Part shown: in pieces, positions 1 through 23,701 of the stretch
How the letters are laid out: the number at the start of each line of letters is the position of its first letter
How positions within the stretch are numbered: position 1 is the stretch's first letter
Assembly: GCA_964479005.1 (NCBI GenBank)
Contig: CAYZJA010000002.1
Coordinates: 64,001 to 128,000, forward strand
From: an uncultured Candidatus Saccharibacteria bacterium
Lineage (GTDB): Bacteria > Patescibacteriota > Minisyncoccia > UBA6257
Reading direction: 5' to 3'
Length of the DNA: 64,000 nt
Notes under the pieces: model-generated
Databases searched by the model: none
What the model was told of the DNA's origin: nothing
Seen by the model: only the letters and a program-made list of their open reading frames with translations
Made by a program: the position numbers and the translations under genes

Positions 1-714
1 TTAAGTAGCACCATACCAGCATCCTTCAGTAATACAATAATCACTGCCTGGATATGAACCATATCCAGTTGCTTCCATTAAAGATACATGGAGATGATTT
101 CCCTCATCTAATACTGCCAATCCAGCTTTATTAAATTCTGCTATTATTTTTTTATTATCTTCAGAACTATTTGAAACTGAATCTATATCTACACAAGTGC
201 CATCAAGATGACAATCATCGGCTCTCCTTGGCGTATAACTTGTACTATTGCATTCAGCGTCAATACAGGCATCATTTACCCACCACTTCGGATTTATATC
301 TTTTAATAGAAGTAATTTATTTGCTAACGTGGAATCTAAATAAGCTTCTGATTGACCAAATGTATTATCATTTATTGGAATCCCCATATCTCTTATATTA
401 ACTAAATTTTTTGATATAGCCTGATCTTCTGTAGTAACTTCTAGGGTAACTTCTGATGAGGGCAGGGTTATTGTATCAGAAGAACCTTTTAGAATATCAG
501 GATTGATAGTATAAAGAATAATATAAAAAGCAAACAATAAAAGAAGTCCAATAATGGCGCCTGTGATTCTTTCTTGGGCGTCTTTTTGTTGGGCAGTATT
601 ACCTCCAGAAGTAAGGTATTGAAAACCAGCATAAACAATCATGGCAAAAGCTAAAATTCCAGCGAGGCGAAAAGCCCACCAAATAAAAGTCTCGATTAAG
701 CTTATTGGAGTCAT
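1..714 (-). CDS. VirB2/TrbC-like pilin module (signal/TM helix, 'VYAGFQYLTSGGN', second hydrophobic helix) fused to a C-terminal Zn peptidase M15-like domain
   Basis: The N-terminal ~75 aa match the pilin-like module shared with ORFs 33971-34312, 34589-35092 and 35099-36412. The C-terminus has 'CHLDGTCVDID' (H-x2-G-x3-D) and 'EGNHLHV' (E-x-x-H), as in VanY/peptidase M15 zinc sites. The stop codon lies at window position 1-3, so the ORF is complete. Confidence 0.55.
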   Translation of the reverse strand: MTPISLIETFIWWAFRLAGILAFAMIVYAGFQYLTSGGNTAQQKDAQERITGAIIGLLLLFAFYIILYTINPDILKGSSDTITLPSSEVTLEVTTEDQAISKNLVNIRDMGIPINDNTFGQSEAYLDSTLANKLLLLKDINPKWWVNDACIDAECNSTSYTPRRADDCHLDGTCVDIDSVSNSSEDNKKIIAEFNKAGLAVLDEGNHLHVSLMEATGYGSYPGSDYCITEGCWYGAT

Positions 715-723
715 AAGTTTTTA

Positions 724-1419
724 TTAAAATTGAGTAACATCGCCAGGATTAACTAGTCCAGGAATTCCTATTTCCCATTGGTAAGATTCAAAAATAGGAT
801 ATTCAATTGACTGTATGTTTGGTGGAGCTGGTGGTTCTGGCAATGTTTGCAGAAATGTCTGCAGAATTTCATTTAAAATTATTGGGCATATTTGGGTAAT
901 AAGAATAGCCATTGAGGTGCCAACTGTTGTGCCAAAAACCATTATATTTGCAGTTGCATCTGAAAGTGATTTACAGATATGCTCAATATCTACATGTTTA
1001 AGTAATAAATCTAAAATCCAACTTTTGACAAGTCCTGAAATATCATTATTTCCGTTTATTGCGCTTATAACCAATAATTTTAAGTCTTCTGGAATTACTT
1101 CATTATTCTGTATGATATTTATGAGTTCGTCTTTAACAGTATCTGTAATGTTCCCGTCATTTTGTATTGAGTTTATGAGATATGGTTTTAAATCTTCTGG
1201 AATCTCTTGACTGTTCTGTATTATGTTTATAAGTTCATTTTGAGTAAGTTCTGCTAATTCTGCGCCATCATTAAGGTTTGTTATTGTATCTAAGACCCCT
1301 TGTGGATCCAAAAAAGCCTGAGTTTGTATTGGGACTAAAAATAAACCACCTAATCCCAAATTTAATATCAAAACAATTAATACTATAGCCTTTGTTTTTT
1401 TGAAGATATTTTTAAGCAT
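724..1419 (-). CDS. secreted/membrane-anchored protein with internal ~20-aa repeats (NELINIIQNxxIPEDLK)
   Basis: N-terminal hydrophobic signal/TM, then three copies of an ELINIIQN..(E/V)IPEDLK repeat. Lies in a co-directional operon with the T4SS genes. Confidence 0.5.
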   Translation of the reverse strand: MLKNIFKKTKAIVLIVLILNLGLGGLFLVPIQTQAFLDPQGVLDTITNLNDGAELAELTQNELINIIQNSQEIPEDLKPYLINSIQNDGNITDTVKDELINIIQNNEVIPEDLKLLVISAINGNNDISGLVKSWILDLLLKHVDIEHICKSLSDATANIMVFGTTVGTSMAILITQICPIILNEILQTFLQTLPEPPAPPNIQSIEYPIFESYQWEIGIPGLVNPGDVTQF

Positions 1420-1441
1420 ATTATTTTTTATTTAAAAATGA

Positions 1442-1810
1442 TTAGACTTTTTTTGGCGATGTTGCAGACGTAAGTTTAGTTACAGACGCAAGCTTAGCTG
1501 TTTTTTTTATTGCTTTTTTAACAGGTGCTGGTGATTTTTGGAGTGCATAGACAAGTATAACAGTTAAAGTGGCAATGGGCAAAATACTGGCAAATGGTAT
1601 AAGATCTAATGCTTGACCAATAAAAATCCATGTACCTCTTATTCCGCTGATAAGTGTAATAACAAAGATATAAATGACGAGAGGCAGGACAATAACCCAA
1701 ACAAAGAGGTTAATTCCAGGAATAAATCCCAAAAAGATTTCTATAACATCTTTAATAATGGATGTTATAAGCAAGAATAAAAATATTGTTAAGCTCATTT
1801 TATTTTTCAT
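1442..1810 (-). CDS. small polytopic membrane protein (T4SS cluster)
   Basis: Three to four hydrophobic helices and a basic C-terminus; separated from its neighbours by small gaps. Confidence 0.45.
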   Translation of the reverse strand: MKNKMSLTIFLFLLITSIIKDVIEIFLGFIPGINLFVWVIVLPLVIYIFVITLISGIRGTWIFIGQALDLIPFASILPIATLTVILVYALQKSPAPVKKAIKKTAKLASVTKLTSATSPKKV

Positions 1811-1820
1811 AGAATAATAT

Positions 1821-3611
1821 TTATTCTTTTTTGAACTCCTCTTTAGCTTTCCTAATATCTATAAGTTGAGCTGGGTTTGAGGTAATAATTTGGTCTTCAG
1901 CATAAGAAGCGATAATCTGAATGGCAGCATGTTTGTCTTCTGCAAAAAAGAGACCTGTGCCAACAGAAGCTTGCAAAAGGATGGTTTTTTCTTGTTCTGT
2001 AAGATTTAAGGCTTTGCCTATGATATCAATATTCGCAGGCGACTGTCTTAGTAAAAGGGCTAAAGCAGAGTTGGTAATTAATGGTTTTCCATAAGGTGAT
2101 TTTAAAGCGTCTTCTATGTCCTGTGTAATAAAGGTTACTCCCATATAATACTTTCGCGCTCTTTTAACTAAACCAAAAAGAAAAGACGCGCTTTCTTCGT
2201 GGCGTAACAACCACCATCCTTCATCAATTATTACAACCCTTTTTCTTAAATCCTTTTTTATCATTGTCCATATGTAATTTAATACTACATACATGGCAAT
2301 AGGCCTAAGTTCTTCTTCTAATTCTCTTACGCCAAAGATAACTAAACGATTGTTAATATTAATATTCGATGGTTGATTAAGGAAGCCAGCATAGCTTCCT
2401 TTGGTGAATTTATAAAGTTTTGCAGCTAAATCTTCGCCTCCCTCGGTATTTTTAAGAACATTCTCTAGATCTTCCATTAATGGCAGATTTTTTTTCTCAA
2501 CCATATTTTCAGGAAAAATATCCCGACTTGCGTATGTTTGTACAATGGCTCTATCTAGCATAAGTTCTTCCTGAGGAGAAAGACCTTTAAGCATTAACTT
2601 AATTAGGCCAATAAGATTTAAAATATGGTTGCGAAAAACTTCTTCGCCAGTTTCCTCTTTTTTTACTGTAGGAAGTTCAAATGGATTAATATTATCATCA
2701 GAAGCAACAGATATTTTAAAGTAGCTTCCGCCAATTGAATCAGCCAAGTATTCATACTCATTTTCCGGATCAATAATCAATACATTAGTTCCTAGTAATA
2801 ATGAACGAAGGATTTCTAATTTTATAGCATAACTTTTTCCTGCGCCAGCTTGGGCAAAAACTATCATATTTGCGTTTGGTAGAACAAAGCGGTCAAAAAT
2901 AATCAAGCTATTATTATGCAGATTAACGCCATAAAGGATTCCTTTGTTTTCTGAAAGGTCTAAAGAAGAAAAAGGGAAAAGGGTTGAAGCCGGCTGTGAA
3001 TTTAAGGGAGTAGTTAATAATAATCTATCTATTCCCAATGGTAAGGAAGATTCCATTCCTTCGAATTCTCTAAAGACAGTTGGTTTTGCGTAAATTAACT
3101 GCTGCTCTAATACATTTTTGATTTTACTTTCTATTTTTATAAGTTCCTCCTTGTCATTGGCAAAAAAAGTGATATAAACACCTACTTCAAAAAGTTTTTC
3201 ACTACCTTGTTGGATAGTATCTCTTAGTTTTTCAATATTATTTAAAGCAGCTTCTAATAAGGGGTTACGAACTAATCCTCTATCTGCTTCAATGCTTAAT
3301 TGAGCTTGAATTTCTGCAGATTTTTTTCTTAAATTTCTTAAAACCTTATTAATATTAAGAGGGTGGAAAAAGATTGAAATATTAAAAGATTCATCCAAAT
3401 TAATAATTGAGGAAAACCAATTAGAGGCTAAATAATTTGGATAAGTTAGGATAAAAAGAGTTGAACAATATTTATTTCCTAATTTGAGAAAGTTAGTATT
3501 AATTTCTAATCCAGCAGGGGAAATTAAGTCCTGAAGAGTAGAAACAGCCTGGGATTGCGCTACCACTTGCGGGTTTTTAGGTTTTCTTTTAAATAAGTTT
3601 GGAAAACGCAT
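1821..3611 (-). CDS. VirB4/TrbE/TraC-like type IV secretion ATPase
   Basis: Walker A 'FAQAGAGKSYAI' and Walker B-like 'RVVIIDEGWWLL'; ~600 aa, typical of Gram-positive/CPR VirB4 homologues. Confidence 0.8.
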   Translation of the reverse strand: MRFPNLFKRKPKNPQVVAQSQAVSTLQDLISPAGLEINTNFLKLGNKYCSTLFILTYPNYLASNWFSSIINLDESFNISIFFHPLNINKVLRNLRKKSAEIQAQLSIEADRGLVRNPLLEAALNNIEKLRDTIQQGSEKLFEVGVYITFFANDKEELIKIESKIKNVLEQQLIYAKPTVFREFEGMESSLPLGIDRLLLTTPLNSQPASTLFPFSSLDLSENKGILYGVNLHNNSLIIFDRFVLPNANMIVFAQAGAGKSYAIKLEILRSLLLGTNVLIIDPENEYEYLADSIGGSYFKISVASDDNINPFELPTVKKEETGEEVFRNHILNLIGLIKLMLKGLSPQEELMLDRAIVQTYASRDIFPENMVEKKNLPLMEDLENVLKNTEGGEDLAAKLYKFTKGSYAGFLNQPSNININNRLVIFGVRELEEELRPIAMYVVLNYIWTMIKKDLRKRVVIIDEGWWLLRHEESASFLFGLVKRARKYYMGVTFITQDIEDALKSPYGKPLITNSALALLLRQSPANIDIIGKALNLTEQEKTILLQASVGTGLFFAEDKHAAIQIIASYAEDQIITSNPAQLIDIRKAKEEFKKE

Positions 3612-3614
3612 ATT

Positions 3615-4295
3615 TTATTTATTAAATTCTTCTGGAATATTTATGGATTCTCTTTCAAAAGCTTCTGGGTTGTATGAATTGAAAAATAATTCAATCAGTT
3701 CTTTAGTAGTTAATGGTCGTGATTGTAATCCCATTCTAGTTAAATTCGTAATGATATTATTTTGTCTGATTATTAATTGTTGATAATGCTGACGAAAGCT
3801 TTCATCAGAAAGAGGGATTGTGGCGGAAAATGCCTGGTGCCTTAAATTAAGCAATGTTTTATAAGCTTCTAATATTTGGCTTAACGCGGTCTTTGGTTTA
3901 ATCATAATGGGGTCATAGGGCACTATTACATAGAATTTCTTTTTCATAATATTGTTTCCAGTAACAAGTCCTTTAATGAATGTATAATAATCCTCTCCTT
4001 GCAGTTTAAGCAGATTATTTGTTTCTTGACCAATCTTTTCCTGAAGAAAATTTAAATATGATTCAATATTAACGCGCCTAGAATGAGCTACAACTTGCAA
4101 TGGAAAATCTAAGTTATTTATAAGATTACGCCAGCTCATTAACACGGAAGATTGTTCTTCTTCTGATTTTAAATCAAAATTTATACCTGATACTTCTAAA
4201 ACCGAACGGAGCGAACCGTTTTTAAGAATAACTACCCCTTTTCTAATTTGTTGAAGGGAAATGAGTGACTGGCTACTGAAAGTTTCTTTAGGCAT
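3615..4295 (-). CDS. hypothetical protein (T4SS cluster)
   Basis: 226-aa ORF tightly packed between the VirB3-like and VirB4 genes; no recognisable motif. Confidence 0.45.
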   Translation of the reverse strand: MPKETFSSQSLISLQQIRKGVVILKNGSLRSVLEVSGINFDLKSEEEQSSVLMSWRNLINNLDFPLQVVAHSRRVNIESYLNFLQEKIGQETNNLLKLQGEDYYTFIKGLVTGNNIMKKKFYVIVPYDPIMIKPKTALSQILEAYKTLLNLRHQAFSATIPLSDESFRQHYQQLIIRQNNIITNLTRMGLQSRPLTTKELIELFFNSYNPEAFERESINIPEEFNK

Positions 4296-4712
4296 CTATT
4301 TATCTAATATATCGGTTAATTGTTTAAGTGTTTTTTTGTCCAATTGTTTTTTAATCTGTGTTTTTACTGTGGGTTTAGGCTTTTGAGAAACAGAATAAGA
4401 TACTTTCGAAAAAGTTTTTTCTTTTTTCCATAGATAGTATTTTGGAAGCCAAAAATGTCTGATTGCGGCAATGGCGAGTGTATAAATAGGAACACTATGG
4501 ATTTTCCCAAATGCGAGAGAAAAACCGACTGGAGCGAGAATCATTGCTAAAATTAACCAAAGCCATGGTTTTAAAACAGAAAAAAGTAAAAGGAGGAGTC
4601 CTCCAAAAGATAATAAAATCCATAATTGGGTAAAGGTAATCCAACCCATTAATTTTGTTTCCTCTTTTATAAATTGAGGCACTTGATAAGTCATATTTTT
4701 AAGCTTTACCAA
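4296..4712 (-). CDS. VirB3/PrgI-like small membrane protein
   Basis: 138 aa with two adjacent TM helices and a basic tail; sits upstream of VirB4 in the same operon. Confidence 0.45.
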   Translation of the reverse strand: MVKLKNMTYQVPQFIKEETKLMGWITFTQLWILLSFGGLLLLLFSVLKPWLWLILAMILAPVGFSLAFGKIHSVPIYTLAIAAIRHFWLPKYYLWKKEKTFSKVSYSVSQKPKPTVKTQIKKQLDKKTLKQLTDILDK

Positions 4713-5589
4713 AAGGACTTTTTTTCTGATATTTTTTATAAGGAATAGGCTTTTGGATAGTAGGCGTTTCTTCTTTTTTTTCTTTTTCCTTTTTTAATTT
4801 AACGTCAAGGATATATGGTTTTTCTTTTTTAGTTTTCACAAAAACTTCTTCATCCTCAAATTCTTTTCCTTCACCGCTTAAAATTTTAGAGGGCGTTAAT
4901 TCTCCTATTCTTTTCTTTTCTAATATTTCCTTTTCTTCTCTTTTTGCTTCTTTGGGCGATGGGGGTTTTAAAGAGACTTTTTTCATTTCTTCAACAATCT
5001 TCGGTTGGACGGGTTTTCTCTGCATTGCCGCCAATAGCTTTGCTCTGATTTTTTCTTGTTGTTCTGAAGAAATTTTTGGAGCAACAACTTTTTTTAATTC
5101 CTCTATTTTACTAACTGGTTTTTCCACTTTTACTTCAGATGGTTCAGGCAAAGAATATTCAGGAATAATTGGTTCAGAAGGCATTTGTTCTGTAATGGTT
5201 TGTTCAATTTTTTCTTTCGTAATAGGCTTTATCTTTGAGGGCTTTTGCGGAATTCTTTGCTCTAAAGGTTGAGGTTTGTATTGGTTCAATTCTTTCTCAA
5301 ATATTTTAAAGATTTTTCCTTCAATTACTTTGTTAACAATTTGAGCTGCTACTGGAGAAATATTAATTCTTCTTTCTAATTCATTTTTGAATTGATCTTT
5401 AGATAATTGAAAAGATAAAATTTCTGTTATGATGTCCATAACACTAGAAAATTTTTCAGATGAAACTTTGCCCAAATTTAAAGCATCATCTATAATTGCC
5501 CCCATCTTGTCAGAGGCCAAAAAGTCCTGAATACGAAATGGAAGTTTATTGAATGATTTTAAGAATTTGTTTTTGTTCGTTTCTTCCAT
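4699..5589 (-). CDS. Lys/Glu-rich hypothetical protein (T4SS cluster)
   Basis: 296 aa, highly charged; overlaps the next gene by 14 nt, consistent with translational coupling. Confidence 0.45.
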   Translation of the reverse strand: MEETNKNKFLKSFNKLPFRIQDFLASDKMGAIIDDALNLGKVSSEKFSSVMDIITEILSFQLSKDQFKNELERRINISPVAAQIVNKVIEGKIFKIFEKELNQYKPQPLEQRIPQKPSKIKPITKEKIEQTITEQMPSEPIIPEYSLPEPSEVKVEKPVSKIEELKKVVAPKISSEQQEKIRAKLLAAMQRKPVQPKIVEEMKKVSLKPPSPKEAKREEKEILEKKRIGELTPSKILSGEGKEFEDEEVFVKTKKEKPYILDVKLKKEKEKKEETPTIQKPIPYKKYQKKSPFGKA

Positions 5590-5603
5590 ATTCCTCAGTA
5601 AGA

Positions 5604-7820
5604 TTAAAAAGGCAAAAATTCTGCCAAGAAACGATTTTTGTCGTATTTTCTTCTTTTGAGCTCTTGTTTAACAGTTTCTTCATTTCCGTGGATTTTGTCT
5701 TGGACAGATTTTACAAGTTTTTGTGCCCATTTTGTTTGTTTTTCAGTATCATTTGTTGACCTAAGCATAGCAGCAAAATTTCCAGCTGGAAGATTTTTAT
5801 CTAAAAGAGTATAGAAAAATCGATTGGTATGCTGTGGTCCTTTTTCTTCTAATCTTTCAAGAATGTTTTCCCAATTACCTAATTTTATATCATCAGGCGA
5901 AGATTTTAGCAGTTGTTCTGCTATAAGATTAGTGATAACACGATTTTTAGCTTCATCACGAGAGACTCCATGGAATCTTCGCTTCATCTGTTCTATTGCT
6001 TTGTCCATATCTTCAGGTTTTGTAAAGTATTTAGCATGAAGTTCTGGATGAATTTTTTTAATTCCTGAAACATTTAAATTAGGTTGATTTTTAGCTATTT
6101 CGATGAACTTGCTATCTTTTTTATAATCCAGTGATTCTTTTCCTATTAATGTGTTAACACCCAAAGCCATTCTTCCCCCATCTGTCTTATGTGCTTCCAT
6201 ATCAACTCTAATTTGATCTGGGCTTCTTCCTTTATAATCTTCTTCAATTTGTTTTAGTTCAGCTTCGCGAACTTTCCTAGGCTGCCTACCCATCCAAACC
6301 CCTATGTCATGTGTAGGCGCAAATTTGCTGTCTTCTAATTTTTTCTGAGCTTTTCTCCATGGTTCTGAGCTTACGGCTCCTTTTAATGCTTTATGACCAA
6401 GGAAGGCGCCAGCTACTGCTCCAGCCTTAGTAGTTTGTTTCATAACTAATTGAGATGCTGCTCCTCCGCTTTGGAGGGAGAAAATTAATCCTCCTACCAA
6501 AAACATAGAGAATAAAATCATTTGCACTATTGTTGAAGTTACAGAGTCTGCGCCGATTGATATTTGACTCATTCCACTCATTGCTATTATAGCAATATAC
6601 AGTATAAAACTAAAAATAACAGGAAAAAAACACCATTTTATAAATTGTTGCCACCACATTTTCCAATATTTTTCTGTATCTGGGAAAATCCAACAAGCAA
6701 AAACGATAGGGGATAAACCTAGAAGCATAATTAAAATGAATGCTCTGAAAATTATTGTCAAGAAAATAGCAAGCAAAGCAATAACAGCAAAACCTCCAAC
6801 CAATATCATTATAAAGCTGATTATGAAAAAGTTACCAAAACGTAGGCTATAACTCTCTACTTCCGTTGCTGCTGTTGTAGTTGCTGTACCAGTATCTCCA
6901 AGACCTAGAATTTTTGGCGTTTCATATTTATCCTCGCCAAATAAAACAGGAGGATCAAATGTTTTTGTATCCGCTGATTGTTGTTCTTGTTCAATATAAC
7001 TAAAACTTTCCATTATACGAGGGGCAAGGCTTTCATTTTTTTCTTGAGCAATGTTTAGAAAATATACTGAGAGATAATTAGAAGTATCTACTATGATTCC
7101 TGATATAACTAAACTGAAGTTTACTAACAAAGCAACAAGTATTAATTTCCAAAGGATTTGTTTCCAAGCATATTTTTTATAACCAAGAATAGTTGCGATA
7201 GCAATACCTATTAACCCTAAAACTAAAAGTGCGTTAACTAAATTGCGCATCATTTCCCATATTTGTATAACACCATCATTTGTAGCAAATCCGCCATAAG
7301 TTTTCGGATTTAACGCTTTTAATATCCAGCCTATTTCTAAATCTATTAATCCAGCAAACATTTTACCCAAACCTTCAAGTATGGCTTTTGTAGTAACACA
7401 CCACATGTCTGCAATCACTACTTTTATTTCGCATCCAAGCGCATCTAACCCCCAACCATACCTCGCTGCGCATTCCTGCATTCCCTCTTCAAAGTTCTTC
7501 TTACAAAGACCTTCTGGCCTTTCTTCTTGAAGTCTGGTTTTTATTGTCTGTGCTCCATGTCTTATCTCTGTTGTCCCAGGTTCAGGATTTGGAATACAAC
7601 ATTGCTCACTACCAAATCCAGGACAACTCAAAGAAGATTCAATGTAATCTTCTAAATCACTACATTTTGTTGTCTTTTTAACAACACATGTACCTCCTGC
7701 TTCTTCGCAGTCAGACCCAGCTCTTACTTGTGAAATATCAGTTTTTAAAACAGGGCTGATTAGTAATGTAAGAATAACTATGCTAAAAACCCCAATTTTT
7801 AATATATTTTTTGTTTTCAT
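5604..7820 (-). CDS. VirB6/TrbL-like polytopic membrane protein with Cys-rich N-terminal ectodomain and C-terminal soluble domain
   Basis: Signal peptide, about seven TM helices in the central region, and a Thr-rich linker 'TGTATTTAATE'; first gene of the minus-strand T4SS operon. Confidence 0.55.
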   Translation of the reverse strand: MKTKNILKIGVFSIVILTLLISPVLKTDISQVRAGSDCEEAGGTCVVKKTTKCSDLEDYIESSLSCPGFGSEQCCIPNPEPGTTEIRHGAQTIKTRLQEERPEGLCKKNFEEGMQECAARYGWGLDALGCEIKVVIADMWCVTTKAILEGLGKMFAGLIDLEIGWILKALNPKTYGGFATNDGVIQIWEMMRNLVNALLVLGLIGIAIATILGYKKYAWKQILWKLILVALLVNFSLVISGIIVDTSNYLSVYFLNIAQEKNESLAPRIMESFSYIEQEQQSADTKTFDPPVLFGEDKYETPKILGLGDTGTATTTAATEVESYSLRFGNFFIISFIMILVGGFAVIALLAIFLTIIFRAFILIMLLGLSPIVFACWIFPDTEKYWKMWWQQFIKWCFFPVIFSFILYIAIIAMSGMSQISIGADSVTSTIVQMILFSMFLVGGLIFSLQSGGAASQLVMKQTTKAGAVAGAFLGHKALKGAVSSEPWRKAQKKLEDSKFAPTHDIGVWMGRQPRKVREAELKQIEEDYKGRSPDQIRVDMEAHKTDGGRMALGVNTLIGKESLDYKKDSKFIEIAKNQPNLNVSGIKKIHPELHAKYFTKPEDMDKAIEQMKRRFHGVSRDEAKNRVITNLIAEQLLKSSPDDIKLGNWENILERLEEKGPQHTNRFFYTLLDKNLPAGNFAAMLRSTNDTEKQTKWAQKLVKSVQDKIHGNEETVKQELKRRKYDKNRFLAEFLPF

Positions 7821-19352: not shown

Positions 19353-20618
19353 TTAATCTTCTTTAATAATTTGTTTTGTTTTTTCTGTTTTTCTTTTGTC
19401 TTTTGTTTTATCAAGCTTCTTTTCTTCTTTGGTGTCAGCTACTCCTCCTTCTATTGTTTCTTCTGGCGCAAGAGCAGAGCGAATATCGATTTTCCAGCCA
19501 GTAAGTTTTGCCGCTAAACGAACATTCTGACCATTTTTACCAATAGCTAAAGAAATTTGATCAGGAGGAACGAATACTCTTACTTCTCTTTTCTCGGAAA
19601 TAATTTCGGCTTCTTTAATTTTTGCTGGACCTAAAGCAGACGCAACATATCTAGTTGGTTCTTCAGAATAAGGAATAATATCTATTTTTTCACCGTTTAA
19701 TTCGTCAATAATAGTTGTTACCCGTGTTCCTTTTTGCCCAACGCAAGCGCCTACTGGATCTACGTTTTCATCTTTGGAATCTACAGCGATTTTTGTTCGA
19801 TTTCCCGGTTCACGGGCGATAGATTTTATTTCTACTACTCCCTCACTTATTTCAGGAACTTCCATTTCAAAAAGATAAGAGACAAATTTTGGATGACAAC
19901 GGGAGAGCAGAATTATCGGTCCTCGCCCTTTTTCTTCTAATCGAAGAATATAGAATTTTTTTCTTTCCCCTGCTTGGTAATGTTCGCCTGGTATTCCCTC
20001 ATTGGCATAGAGGACGCCAAATGTTTTTCCTAGATCAACATAGATATTTTTTCTCTCTATTCTTTGGATGATTCCGCTTACTACCATTCCTTCTTTTTCT
20101 TTAAATTCTGAAAGGATTGTTTCTTTTTCTAATTCCTTGAGTTTTTGTAGGATAACTTGTTTGGCAGTTTGGGCAGCTATTCGGCTAAAATCGCTTTTTA
20201 CATCTAAAGGAGTAACTATTTCTTCATCGATTTTAACATTTGATTTTGTCTTTTTCGCTTCTTCTAAAAAGATATGCCTTTCAGGATTAAATTTGATTTT
20301 TCGATTCTCATCTTCATCAACTTCGTTTTCATTTTTCTTCCCCCCACTTTTTTTTGTTGAATCAATTTTTTCTTCTTTTTCTTCCTCCTCTTCAGCAATA
20401 ACAGAAGATTTATCAACAACAATTTTTACTTGCGAGAATTTTACTTGCCCATCATCAGGATTAATTTCTGCCCGAATAACTTGTGTTTTTTTGCCATATT
20501 CTTTTTTATAAGCAGCAGCAAAAGCGACCTCTAAAGCTTCGAAAACTTTTTGTTCCGAAAGTCCTTTCTCTTCGGCAATCTGACGAATTAATGGTTTTAA
20601 GGTTTTTAGATCTAACAT
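19353..20618 (-). CDS. nusA: transcription termination/antitermination factor NusA (with acidic insertion)
   Basis: N-terminal 'LIRQIAEEKGLSEQKVFEALEVAFAAAYKK', S1 region, and KH motifs 'GACVGQKGTRV' and 'IGKNGQNVRLAAKLTGWKIDI'. Confidence 0.85.
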   Translation of the reverse strand: MLDLKTLKPLIRQIAEEKGLSEQKVFEALEVAFAAAYKKEYGKKTQVIRAEINPDDGQVKFSQVKIVVDKSSVIAEEEEEKEEKIDSTKKSGGKKNENEVDEDENRKIKFNPERHIFLEEAKKTKSNVKIDEEIVTPLDVKSDFSRIAAQTAKQVILQKLKELEKETILSEFKEKEGMVVSGIIQRIERKNIYVDLGKTFGVLYANEGIPGEHYQAGERKKFYILRLEEKGRGPIILLSRCHPKFVSYLFEMEVPEISEGVVEIKSIAREPGNRTKIAVDSKDENVDPVGACVGQKGTRVTTIIDELNGEKIDIIPYSEEPTRYVASALGPAKIKEAEIISEKREVRVFVPPDQISLAIGKNGQNVRLAAKLTGWKIDIRSALAPEETIEGGVADTKEEKKLDKTKDKRKTEKTKQIIKED

Positions 20619-20705
20619 TTTATTTTAAATTAATTTTATTAAGAAAGACCGCCTTTGGGCGATCTCATCGTTACTTTTAGTAGCTTATCTTGTTTTTTCT
20701 GAAAA

Positions 20706-20826
20706 GTCAACCCCGTTAGAGATTTAAGTTAGTTAATTTATTTTCAATGACCATAGCCGAGAGGCGGCTTCGCCTTATGGTTTTTATATTATTGAAAAGC
20801 TGGGTTGAATCTCTAACGGGGTCAAC
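20706..20826. repeat. 16-nt inverted-repeat pair (GTCAACCCCGTTAGAG ... CTCTAACGGGGTCAAC) flanking the divergent nusA/yraN intergenic region
   Basis: Arms at 20706-20721 and 20811-20826; the 5' arm, read on the minus strand, gives GGGG-TTGACT, the -35 for nusA. Confidence 0.55.
20751..20786 (+). terminator. hairpin plus T5 (terminator-like) inside the nusA/yraN intergenic region
   Basis: 'ccatagccgagaggcg-gctt-cgccttatgg-ttttt'. Confidence 0.35.
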
Positions 20827-20876
20827 CCTCCACGCTAAGATTTGTAATTATGGGATAAAAATATTAAAATAAAAGG

Positions 20877-21254
20877 ATGAGGATAGGAAGAATTGGTTCT
20901 TTTGGAGAAGATAAAGCAACAACTTATCTTCAAAATAGCCATTATCAAGTTATACAAAGAAATTTCCAAAGGAAGTGGGGTGAGATTGATATTATTGCAA
21001 AAGATAAAAAAACAAAAGAATTAGTTTTTGTAGAAGTTAAAACAAGACAATTAAATTATGCTTATAGTTTAAACCCAGAAGAGGCATTAACTTCAAAGAA
21101 GGTTCGTCGTTTAAAGCGGGCCTTTTTAAGTTATTTAATTCAATATAATTTAGAAGATAAACCCTGGCGCTTTGATTTTATTGCTATAGAAATAGATAAT
21201 TTTAATTCAGAACCAATAATTCGGCATTATAAAGATATATTTTTACAATTTTAA
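20877..21254 (+). CDS. yraN: YraN-family (UPF0102) endonuclease
   Basis: 'GEIDIIAKD...LVFVEVKTR' core of UPF0102. Confidence 0.7.
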   Translation: MRIGRIGSFGEDKATTYLQNSHYQVIQRNFQRKWGEIDIIAKDKKTKELVFVEVKTRQLNYAYSLNPEEALTSKKVRRLKRAFLSYLIQYNLEDKPWRFDFIAIEIDNFNSEPIIRHYKDIFLQF

Positions 21255-21263
21255 ATTAAATTG

Positions 21264-21467
21264 ACTTTGTGACACGGTAAACATTGTGTGAAACAAAGTG
21301 TGAAACAATATTAACAAAGCCATTTCCTAATTTTAGACTAAAAATCTGGCTTATTTATGGGCAAACCAAGTAATTTAGGCAGCTTTTATCTCTATTAAGC
21401 CAAAACCCTAATTAAAAATAGTTACTTTGTGACACGGTAAACATTGTGTGAAACAAAGCGTGAAACA
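21264..21467. repeat. two 43-nt direct repeats (ACTTTGTGACACGGTAAACATTGTGTGAAACAAAGYGTGAAACA) 116 bp apart
   Basis: Copies at 21264-21307 and 21424-21467, one mismatch; each contains a GTGTGAAACA / GTGAAACA sub-repeat. They lie immediately 3' of the minus-strand tRNA cluster. Confidence 0.7.
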
Positions 21468-21496
21468 CCGTAAAACGGCGTGAAGGAAATTATTTG

Positions 21497-21681
21497 TGGA
21501 CTCAGCGAGAATCGAACTCGCGTCTTCGCAACTTGCCCCCACACCATTATATTAGTGGACCCGAGGGGAATCGAACCCCTATCTCGGCAATGCGAATGCC
21601 GTGTAATACCATTGTACTACGGGCCCGTATTTTATGGTGTGGGGGTAAAAATGCGGTATATTACCACTATACTATGAGCCC
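21497..21681 (-). tRNA. split/intron-containing tRNA whose 5' and 3' halves flank a nested tRNA-Ala (anticodon possibly UUU)
   Basis: 5' half GGGCTCA-TAGTATAGTGGTAATATA-CCGCA (21627-21681). 3' half TGCGA-AGAC-GCGAG-TTCGATT-CTCGC-TGAGTCC-A (21497-21545). The halves have perfectly paired acceptor stems and D/T arms near-identical to tRNA-Gly at 12759. The intervening ~130 nt holds the complete tRNA-Ala flanked by complementary CCCCCACACC/GGTGTGGGGG. Confidence 0.45.
21556..21626 (-). tRNA. tRNA-Ala(CGC)
   Basis: Acceptor GGGCCCG/CGGGTCC with G3:U70, loop TTCGCAT, T-arm AGGGG-TTCGATT-CCCCT; no encoded CCA. Confidence 0.8.
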
Positions 21682-22534: not shown

Positions 22535-23701
22535 ATGCCCAAAGTAAAATGTAGAGTTTGCAAAAAGATATTCTATATCAAATCCAATTGGCTTAAAAGA
22601 GGATGGGGAAAATATTGTTCGAGGAAATGTCAGTACAAATCCCAATTGAAAGGAAAATTTGTGGTTTGCGCCTATTGCGGTAGAAGGGTATATCGATCAC
22701 TTGCTGAATTGCGCAGAAAATCTAAGGCAGGAGTTTATTTTTGTAATTTATCCTGTCATTGCGCTTGGAAAAATAAACAAAGGAAAAGTAAGGGAAGATT
22801 TAAATTACAAAATTTATGGGGACCGTGGTGTAATAGTAGCACTAGGACCTGTGGCGTCCTCGGTACGGATGCAAATTCCGTCGGTCCCCCATTTTTCTTT
22901 CTAAAATTCTTAAAGCCCAAGAAGAAAAAAAATAATCTTTTATTTCTTAAGCGGCCACCAAAGAAAATTCTTTATCATTTTTATTGGAAAAAGAATTATA
23001 CCCAAACAGAGATAGCTAAAATTTTTAATGCCACCCACACTAGCGTGAAAAGATGGTTTAATTATTATAAAATCATGGTGAAGTACCGAACTCTATCTTG
23101 TGGCCATAATCCCAATATTTTAAGAAATTTAAAATTAGGTCGTACAGATAAAGCTATTAGAAAATCGGCAGAAGCAAGAAGAATTTATTCAAAAGAAAAA
23201 CTTATTGAAAAAATAAAAGAATTTGTACAAAAAGAAGAAAGAATTCCTACAAAGAACGAATTTATTAATAATTCCTCTTATCCAGATTATGTCACTTACA
23301 GGCATTATTTTGGCACTTGGAATAATGCCATCAAGACAGCGGGCTACAAGCCAAATGAACAATGGTTTGCCTCAGGACATTTATTTGCTAAAGATGGGCA
23401 CAAATGTAATTCAATTTCAGAAATAATCATTGACGATTGGTTTTTTGAAAATGATATTTCTCATACGAGAGAGTGTTTATACCCAGAAGGACGATATCGC
23501 TGTGATTTTATGGTTGGCAATACTTTTATTGAATTTTTTGGTTTATTTAATGCTTCCATTGTTAACCCAAGTTATATTGAAATCGTTAAAAGAAAAAAAG
23601 AAATATGTAAGAAATTTAATATTGTCCTCATTGAACTCTATGAGAAGGATCTTTATAAATTAGATCAATCCTTGGGAGCAAAGATTGGATTAAAAGTATA
23701 A
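22535..23701 (+). CDS. composite ORF: 2x zinc-ribbon N-terminus, HTH, 'YRHYFGTWNNAIKTAG' motif and a DUF559/Vsr-like PD-(D/E)xK endonuclease-like C-terminus; contains a tRNA-His-like sequence in-frame
   Basis: N-terminal 'CRVCKK..YCSRKC' and 'CAYCGR..CNLSCHC'. HTH 'YTQTEIAKIFNATHTSVKRW'. C-terminal 'SEIII..RYRCDFMV..IEFFG..KKFNIVLIEL' resembles DUF559. A 388-codon open frame is unusual in AT-rich DNA, but codons 95-119 coincide with a GC-rich tRNA-like cloverleaf, so the true start or boundaries are uncertain. Confidence 0.4.
   Translation: MPKVKCRVCKKIFYIKSNWLKRGWGKYCSRKCQYKSQLKGKFVVCAYCGRRVYRSLAELRRKSKAGVYFCNLSCHCAWKNKQRKSKGRFKLQNLWGPWCNSSTRTCGVLGTDANSVGPPFFFLKFLKPKKKKNNLLFLKRPPKKILYHFYWKKNYTQTEIAKIFNATHTSVKRWFNYYKIMVKYRTLSCGHNPNILRNLKLGRTDKAIRKSAEARRIYSKEKLIEKIKEFVQKEERIPTKNEFINNSSYPDYVTYRHYFGTWNNAIKTAGYKPNEQWFASGHLFAKDGHKCNSISEIIIDDWFFENDISHTRECLYPEGRYRCDFMVGNTFIEFFGLFNASIVNPSYIEIVKRKKEICKKFNIVLIELYEKDLYKLDQSLGAKIGLKV
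22818..22889 (+). tRNA. tRNA-His(GTG)-like cloverleaf with non-canonical D- and T-loops
   Basis: G-1:C73 and acceptor GGGACCG/CGGTCCC. Anticodon stem AGGAC/GTCCT with loop CTGTGGC. T-stem ACGGA/TCCGT with loop TGCAAAT (no TTC). D-loop AATAGTA (no GG). Confidence 0.5.

Follow-up and report, generated by a model that had tools for sequence, protein, structure and literature searches.

What are the two nearly identical direct repeats that lie between yraN and a tRNA cluster in this DNA, and why have they been kept? In the window, by which we mean the whole 64-kb stretch analysed here, a repeat search identified a direct repeat of 44 nt in two copies that are 98% identical (Table 1), each reading ACTTTGTGACACGGTAAACATTGTGTGAAACAAAG[T/C]GTGAAACA. 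An earlier note on this DNA had described near-identical copies of 43 nt with one mismatch; the single mismatch stood (T at 21299 versus C at 21459), whereas the length had to be corrected. The note had offered three readings, namely an array of binding sites for a protein, att-like duplications and a degenerate repeat-spacer unit. The first is supported below by half-sites of parS within the repeats and by perfect parS in relatives, and the other two are not. The copies start 160 nt apart, leaving 116 bp between them, and they sit where the note had placed them, between the yraN stop (21254) and the 3′ end of a minus-strand tRNA (21497). With up to three mismatches allowed, no further copy of the 44-mer was found in the 64-kb window, and 0 of 100 dinucleotide-preserving shuffles contained a match to it. 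The window contains six copies of the octamer GTGAAACA, where 1.6 would be expected; four of them fall within the repeats (21288, 21300, 21448 and 21460), where both extra half-sites are perfect in both copies, matching the reiterated half-sites seen earlier. The sequence reported to trail the second copy, CCGTAAAACGGCGTGAAGG, was likewise recovered at 21468-21486, and a related locus (L064) carries GTGTGAAACA where the window has the degenerate half-site of the tail. No credible ORF spans the repeats, the overlapping ORFs being only 26-44 aa long. The repeats also explain the breaks of k-mer assemblies at this locus: the k=31 contigs of five independent assemblies, all of this organism, end at 21293, inside copy 1, because the repeat is longer than 31 nt, and a sixth contig, from a JGI metagenome, is identical across the whole locus.

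Table 1. Window coordinates of the repeat modules, the segment between them and the neighbouring genes
Feature	Position	Strand	Basis and remarks
nusA	19353-20618	-	Pfam and synteny; conserved syntenic anchor; strand on which a U-tract follows the central hairpin
yraN (UPF0102)	20877-21254	+	Pfam PF02021, 3.6e-24; left neighbour
Module A, left 44-bp composite repeat	21264-21307		Direct repeat; in register, base for base, with modules of relatives
parS-derived 16-mer of module A	21268-21283		TGTGACACGGTAAACA; four mismatches to TGTTTCACGTGAAACA, palindrome lost
Half-parS, second direct unit of module A	21288-21295	+	Motif count and module alignment; perfect GTGAAACA
Half-parS, third direct unit of module A	21300-21307	+	Motif count and module alignment; perfect GTGAAACA, 12 bp on
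Conserved 100-bp central element	21308-21407		Ungapped 100-column alignment, 16 species
Hairpin remnant	21347-21402		Basal stem TGGCTTA (21347-21353) / TAAGCCA (21396-21402); interior decayed
Module B, right 44-bp composite repeat	21424-21467		Direct repeat and module alignment
parS-derived 16-mer of module B	21428-21443		
Half-sites of module B	21448-21455, 21460-21467		
Tail 3′ of module B	21468-21487		Small palindrome CCGTAAAACGG, then degenerate extra half-site GTGAAGGA

The repeat is shared with other genomes. Metagenome contigs were scanned for an exact match to 28 nt of it, which returned 12 contigs, and the half-site pair GTGAAACAAAGNGNGAAACA was scanned against one genome per GTDB species, which returned 70 loci. 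Twenty-seven of these belong to Patescibacteria (Paceibacterota or Minisyncoccia) and represent about 26 species, with some record titles among them that look mis-binned; many of the 27 have two pattern matches, 138-200 nt apart. The other 43 matches, all outside Patescibacteria, are single, have no adjacent palindrome or parS, and look like chance occurrences or coding repeats. Separately, seven SAR116 genomes (L027, L028, L030, L045, L053, L069 and L073) share an AT-rich intergenic motif, ...AAAACTGTGAAACAAAGTGAGAAACATTTTGT..., which was caught by the half-site pattern and has no adjacent parS. The search of related genomes that the earlier note had proposed thus yielded further copies in about 26 species and 12 metagenome contigs, and the unexplained local duplication that it envisaged for a repeat unique to this locus is clearly not what was found. 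With the window proteins as tblastn queries, the module loci were found to have the gene order clpP-GT2-PTPS-tig-nusA-(yraN)-module in common, where GT2 is a glycosyltransferase and PTPS a PTPS-related membrane protein; NusA identity among these loci is 60-94%. About a dozen loci keep the repeats though yraN is missing or frameshifted, so that the conserved neighbour is the region upstream of nusA, not yraN. YraN was also considered as a junction-resolvase-like partner of the palindrome and was rejected because yraN is absent or frameshifted in many module loci.

Alignment of 45 distinct instances gave the module consensus AAAATGTTTCACGTGAAACATTGTGTGAAACAAAGTGTGAAACA. The module consists of a 16-bp palindrome, TGTTTCAC joined directly to GTGAAACA, followed by TTGT-GTGAAACA-AAGT-GTGAAACA. 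Counted together with the palindrome's right arm, GTGAAACA stands three times in direct orientation with a 12-bp period. This octamer is the right half-site of parS and the reverse complement of TGTTTCAC. The sequence TGTTNCACGTGAAACA is parS, the highly conserved chromosomal site of ParB/Spo0J, which is found mostly in the ori domain (PMC7022226), and several further papers contain the exact 16-mer TGTTTCACGTGAAACA. Among the related loci, 13 carry perfect canonical parS, in up to six copies per locus, against a chance expectation of about 2e-6 per 8-kb locus. It stands at the module offset (-20) in L026, L032, L034, L035, L039, L056, L068 and L085, and beside module B, not at the module offset, in L011, L012 and L014. 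Palindromes one or two mismatches from parS were found in L022, L052, L059, L064, L065 and L077, and the intermediate palindrome TGTTTCACGGTAAACA in L052, L064 and L065; such intermediates connect the canonical parS palindrome with the variant in the window. A bare parS makes up the right-hand cluster of three loci (L026, L059 and L082). Recombination between the repeats would be expected to leave what locus L009 has, a single module and no central segment. As an observation in its own right, L085 (about 140-800 of that locus) has six perfect parS in about 650 bp, paired on either side of a 129-aa ORF that has no Pfam match and adjoins yraN; the central hairpin element is absent there.

The palindrome has become TGTGACACGGTAAACA in about a dozen species-level loci, those of the window and its closest relatives; there it has four mismatches to parS and has lost its symmetry. 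Across the 64 kb, no site comes within two mismatches of parS, and the best match outside the module 16-mers has three, which is at chance level. The window 16-mers therefore fall outside the one or two mismatches to TGTTNCACGTGAAACA that identify parS by sequence; their flanks and synteny are identical to those of relatives with perfect parS, and they are positional homologues of parS, although by the sequence criterion alone they are not parS. In sister species the palindrome of module B differs (TGTTTGTCGCCAAACA or TGTTTATCGCTAAACA), and some of these species have an extra perfect parS inserted beside module B. Because the module B palindromes of sister species differ, the near-identity of the two window copies reflects homogenisation or duplication between modules. 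Conservation was about 1.97 bits per position for the half-site pair versus 1.26 and 1.42 for the palindrome arms, a difference biased in favour of the half-sites because the loci were retrieved with that same pattern.

The chromosomal position was established from contigs encoding the leftmost proteins of the window, which place the origin gene set, rpmH-rnpA-yidC-jag followed by divergent dnaA-dnaN-dciA, about 2 kb left of the window start. By coordinate mapping, window position 1 lies about 1.7-3.6 kb to the right of two spacers, rpmH-dnaA and dnaA-dnaN. These spacers carry DnaA-box-like 9-mers, and neither parS nor half-sites were found in them. With the dnaA-flanking spacers about 2 kb left of the window, the modules lie about 23 kb from the presumed oriC, that is, in an origin-proximal position and at a distance typical of parS. 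This distance fits with there being no GC-skew switch or DnaA-box cluster at the locus itself. The modules also offer a sequence marker for the origin-proximal region in these poorly assembled genomes. The window segment right after the origin genes (1-7820) holds a type IV secretion/conjugation-like cluster, with a T4SS pilin, a VirB4/TraC-like ATPase and a TrbL-like protein.

The parS/ParB pair is the main chromosome-segregation system of bacteria. The modules are homologous to parS, conserved, clustered, syntenic and origin-proximal, and, as far as sequence can tell, the two 44-bp repeats are probably a conserved protein-binding module derived from parS, an origin-proximal, centromere-like site at which ParB is predicted to dock. 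The ancestral module would have combined a full parS palindrome with two right-hand half-sites at 12-bp phase, and two such modules in direct orientation would flank a hairpin-type element. ParB dimers would nucleate on the modules; the full site, where present, would load ParB clamps, and the phased half-sites may add low-affinity contacts that retain or concentrate ParB beside the loading site. The origin region would thereby be marked by the partition complex for segregation, and perhaps also for the loading of SMC. In the lineage of the window, function would be carried by the half-site array or by a ParB of co-evolved or shifted specificity. Several points count against this reading. The window 16-mers are non-palindromic and four mismatches removed from parS. 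Canonical ParB clamp loading is thought to require both half-sites in inverted orientation, and we know of no demonstrated role for direct half-site arrays. ParB and Soj gave no match in the 64-kb window, in the flanks of about 5 kb on either side of it or in the retrieved loci, in a search for ParB, Soj and DnaA that relied on motif regexes and on tblastn with Spo0J and Soj queries.

What appears new here is the composite: a full parS with two phased direct half-sites, duplicated as a unit, with a conserved hairpin element between the two. The locus descends from chromosomal parS, a known kind of site, and would work as such sites do. It shares with the chromosomal parS of ParB (Spo0J) in ParABS systems the exact 16-bp TGTTTCACGTGAAACA in the ancestral module and the arrangement in clustered, intergenic, origin-proximal sites. 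It differs in that each full site is fused to two direct half-sites in 12-bp phase, in that two modules bracket a conserved hairpin element, and in that the palindrome of the window lineage has decayed by four mismatches. Half-parS sites, GTTTCAC/GTTCCAC, are occupied in vivo by ParB of P. aeruginosa and other species (PMC5961200), and the literature still treats the purpose of half-parS binding as open (PMC7022226, PMC5961200). The octamer GTGAAACA contains the GTTTCAC heptamer that ParB occupies in vivo (PMC5961200), a point of likeness to half-parS binding in P. aeruginosa (GTTCCAC/GTTTCAC) and by V. cholerae ParB2 and Burkholderia ParBs. Known half-parS sites are scattered and mostly intragenic, whereas those of the modules are phased, stand beside a full site, are intergenic and are conserved across species. 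Bipartite layouts are familiar from plasmid centromeres: R1 parC has two iteron blocks flanking a promoter core, in P1 parS an IHF site has ParB boxes to its left and right, and F sopC consists of tandem 43-bp repeats. These resemble the present locus as bipartite clusters of short direct-repeat binding sites around a central element, and differ from it in belonging to plasmid systems with other binding proteins and motifs; no similarity to the composite module was found in the plasmid collection. Perfect parS is a known phenomenon in phi29-like Firmicutes phages. The phi29-like phages of Bacillus and Clostridium carry perfect copies of TGTTTCACGTGAAACA, sometimes two in tandem, and differ from the locus in having full palindromes only, with no phased half-sites or central element, and in having Firmicutes hosts. 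Multiple perfect parS were seen in Bacillus phage Chedec 11 (L100), Clostridium phage phiZP2 (L101) and about 180 other phage records; in phi29-like and related Firmicutes phages they occupy 8-11 places per 18-kb genome, and phiZP2 has two copies 28 bp apart. The phage collection contained plain parS only and not the composite module. The searchable literature yielded neither the composite sequence nor, in the part searched, any paper on parS or ParB in Patescibacteria.

A more specific proposal, which we put forward tentatively and regard as rather doubtful, is that Paceibacteria-type Patescibacteria have a distinct centromere, in which a phased direct half-parS array with a 12-bp period is a selected part of the ParB assembly site, duplicated around a conserved element and outlasting the decay of the palindrome. 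If so, such a centromere would imply that ParB engages DNA in ways beyond symmetric clamp loading, either by open-dimer or filament-like binding or through changed specificity, and it would allow the purpose of half-parS binding to be tested in a natural setting. The locus is a compact, conserved, natural construct in which a full site and phased half-sites occur together, twice, and some lineages show it with the full site decayed. If the modules prove to be ordinary parS with decorative flanks, the finding becomes routine annotation.

The segment between the modules is itself conserved. The central element contains the conserved blocks ATATTAACAAAGCCATTTC, TTGGCTTA, ATGGGCAAACC and TATTAAGCCAAA, and a covariance model built from distant relatives matched the window at 21341-21405 (60.7 bits, E=1.4e-12). 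According to this model there is one copy per locus, always between modules, except in L022 and L077, which have two because the [module + element] unit is duplicated, and in L009, L033, L046 and L085, where the element is absent. Distant relatives have a hairpin of 55-60 nt whose base, TGGCTTAACCATG...CATGGTTAAGCCA, hardly varies and whose inner stem shows compensatory substitutions; in L065 and L068 it folds at -34 to -37 kcal/mol (z about -7.5 to -7.9). The window hairpin, of which only the 7-bp base is left, folds at -10 kcal/mol (z about 0), and for the window group RNAalifold recovered only the invariant basal stem, with no covariation. G-U pairs in the hairpin number 40 on the plus strand versus 48 on the minus strand and show no strand bias. 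A-runs flank the hairpin on both sides of the plus strand, so that in relatives an AUUUUUU follows it solely on the minus strand, where nusA and the upstream tRNA operon are also encoded. At gathering threshold, Rfam returned only tRNAs in the window and its relatives, and at E<=10 nothing meaningful in the window, L064, L065, L068 or L081; a simple terminator scanner made no call on the central hairpin in the window or in relatives. A 13-codon ORF (MGKPSNLGSFYLY) inside the element is not conserved in relatives. Our best guess is that the element would terminate or attenuate leftward transcription, on the nusA strand and ahead of nusA, or would be a small RNA. It is not part of the putative ParB site, and could in principle extrude as a cruciform. 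An integron attC was considered for the element, given that the hairpin ends of relatives (GCTTAAC...GTTAAGC) fit RYYYAAC/GTTRRRY, and was rejected: the element is single-copy, syntenic and not a cassette, and the window group does not fit the motif.

The modules could also be operators or promoters for the central element, taken as a small RNA gene; a regulator other than ParB would bind them, and the likeness to parS would be a case of sequence reuse. We consider this unlikely, though less so than the remaining alternatives. The tandem duplication of [module + element] in L022 and L077 looks as if one module belonged to each element; the element is conserved, of fixed length and covaries in its inner stem in relatives, and weak -35/-10-like matches overlap parS in L035. 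However, a second module usually lies 3′ of the element with nothing conserved beyond it to transcribe, and in the window that module abuts the 3′ end of a tRNA on the opposite strand. Moreover, L009, L046 and L085 have modules without the element, a promoter scan gave no convincing sigma-70 promoter at the window modules, and the hairpin has no G-U strand bias.

Less probable still is a role of the repeats themselves at the RNA level, as hairpins that terminate or process the convergent transcripts of yraN and the tRNA operon. The locus does lie between convergent genes, the plus-strand repeat folds as a 14-bp hairpin (-11.4 kcal/mol), and A and T runs flank canonical palindromes in some relatives. 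This folding is nevertheless no better than that of shuffles (z -1.4 for the plus and -1.2 for the minus strand), and a terminator scan gave no match at the repeats. In many lineages the palindrome arms vary without compensation while the unpaired half-sites stay fixed, and the exact identity to a known protein-binding site would be left unexplained.

Direct repeats that bracket a discrete segment beside tRNA genes had suggested att-like duplications to the earlier note. They could be target duplications or recombination sites of a small integrated or excisable element, and the single module of L009, without a central element, is what recombination between them should leave. We hold this to be very improbable. 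The arrangement, including the 116 bp, is ancestral and syntenic across about 26 species; the repeats contain no tRNA-derived sequence; and no integrase or recombinase was found by Pfam among the flanking genes. As attL and attR, the repeats would enclose an insert of just 116 bp that is non-coding and conserved, with no similarity to tRNA. The loss in L009 is explained by ordinary homologous recombination between 44-bp repeats.

A similarly slight chance attaches to the repeats being part of a replication origin, as variant DnaA boxes or iterons. The clustering of 8-9-mers in both orientations, the perfect TGTGGATAA boxes beside the cluster in L033 and L074, and the nearness of the origin could be taken that way. 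The DnaA-box-like sites are instead in the rpmH-dnaA and dnaA-dnaN spacers, 23 kb off; DnaA boxes are not enriched in the window (20 versus 17.7 expected) and none is at the locus; GC skew does not switch at 21.3 kb; and TGTTTCACA agrees with TTATCCACA at only 6 of 9 positions. Of the hallmarks of oriC, neither a cluster of TTATCCACA-like boxes, which would lie beside an unwinding element, nor a GC-skew switch was found at the locus.

The degenerate, minimal CRISPR-like repeat-spacer unit of the earlier note is hardly credible, for although there are two long repeats with a unique segment between them and Patescibacteria do have unusual RNA-guided systems, the "spacer" is 116 bp long and conserved across at least 16 species rather than variable, there are never more than two or three units, Rfam CRISPR repeat models do not match the repeats, none of 10 proteins checked (about 13.2-26.4 kb) has a Cas-type Pfam domain, and the repeat is a known protein-binding site. 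MraZ boxes, which AAAGTGT repeats resemble, were rejected as well, on the grounds of a 12-bp rather than 10-bp spacing, no dcw operon downstream and units that are contiguous and in phase with perfect parS.

Several features close to the modules are of interest in themselves. On the minus strand, a tRNA-Ala(CGC) gene (21555-21626) is nested in the anticodon loop of an outer tRNA-Ala-like gene (21497-21681, with G3:U70), which is homologous to the uninterrupted tRNA-Ala(CGC) of L031, L066, L072 and L081. The insert, of about 114 bp, is bounded by 12-bp GC-rich inverted repeats, CCCCCACACCAT and ATGGTGTGGGGG, and the whole 186 nt is predicted to fold as a cloverleaf within a cloverleaf (-80.8 kcal/mol, z -6.4). 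In L064 the identical insert interrupts another host gene for tRNA-Ala, and L007 and L076 have a diverged one with compensatory changes. The insert falls short of the length of a group I intron, and a 2026 paper on tRNA introns of Patescibacteria does not describe it. The insert may be a miniature mobile element that targets the anticodon loops of tRNA-Ala genes and carries a replacement tRNA, and it may merit more attention than the repeats. Further GC-rich inverted-repeat elements of this kind, without tRNA cargo, were seen upstream of nusA in L007 (about 1900-2000 of that locus; CCCCACATCA...TGGTGTGGGGG) and by tRNA-Pro in L080 (CCCCGTACCA...TGGTGCGGGG, then ...GGGGCAAG), which suggests a family of small elements with conserved ends. 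The nusA-yraN spacer (20690-20830) contains a 20-bp inverted repeat, GTCAACCCCGTTAGAGATT / AATCTCTAACGGGGTCAAC, around a GC-rich hairpin (GACCATAGCCGAGAGGCGGCTTCGCCTTATGGTT) that could be a structured leader or a small RNA upstream of nusA. To the right of the tRNA genes, ARAGORN called a tRNA-His at 22819-22890 (+), which the Rfam tRNA model did not report and which lies inside an ORF (22535-23701); this ORF encodes 388 aa with a homing-endonuclease-associated HNH_repeat domain and is 84-89% conserved in L015, L050 and L079.
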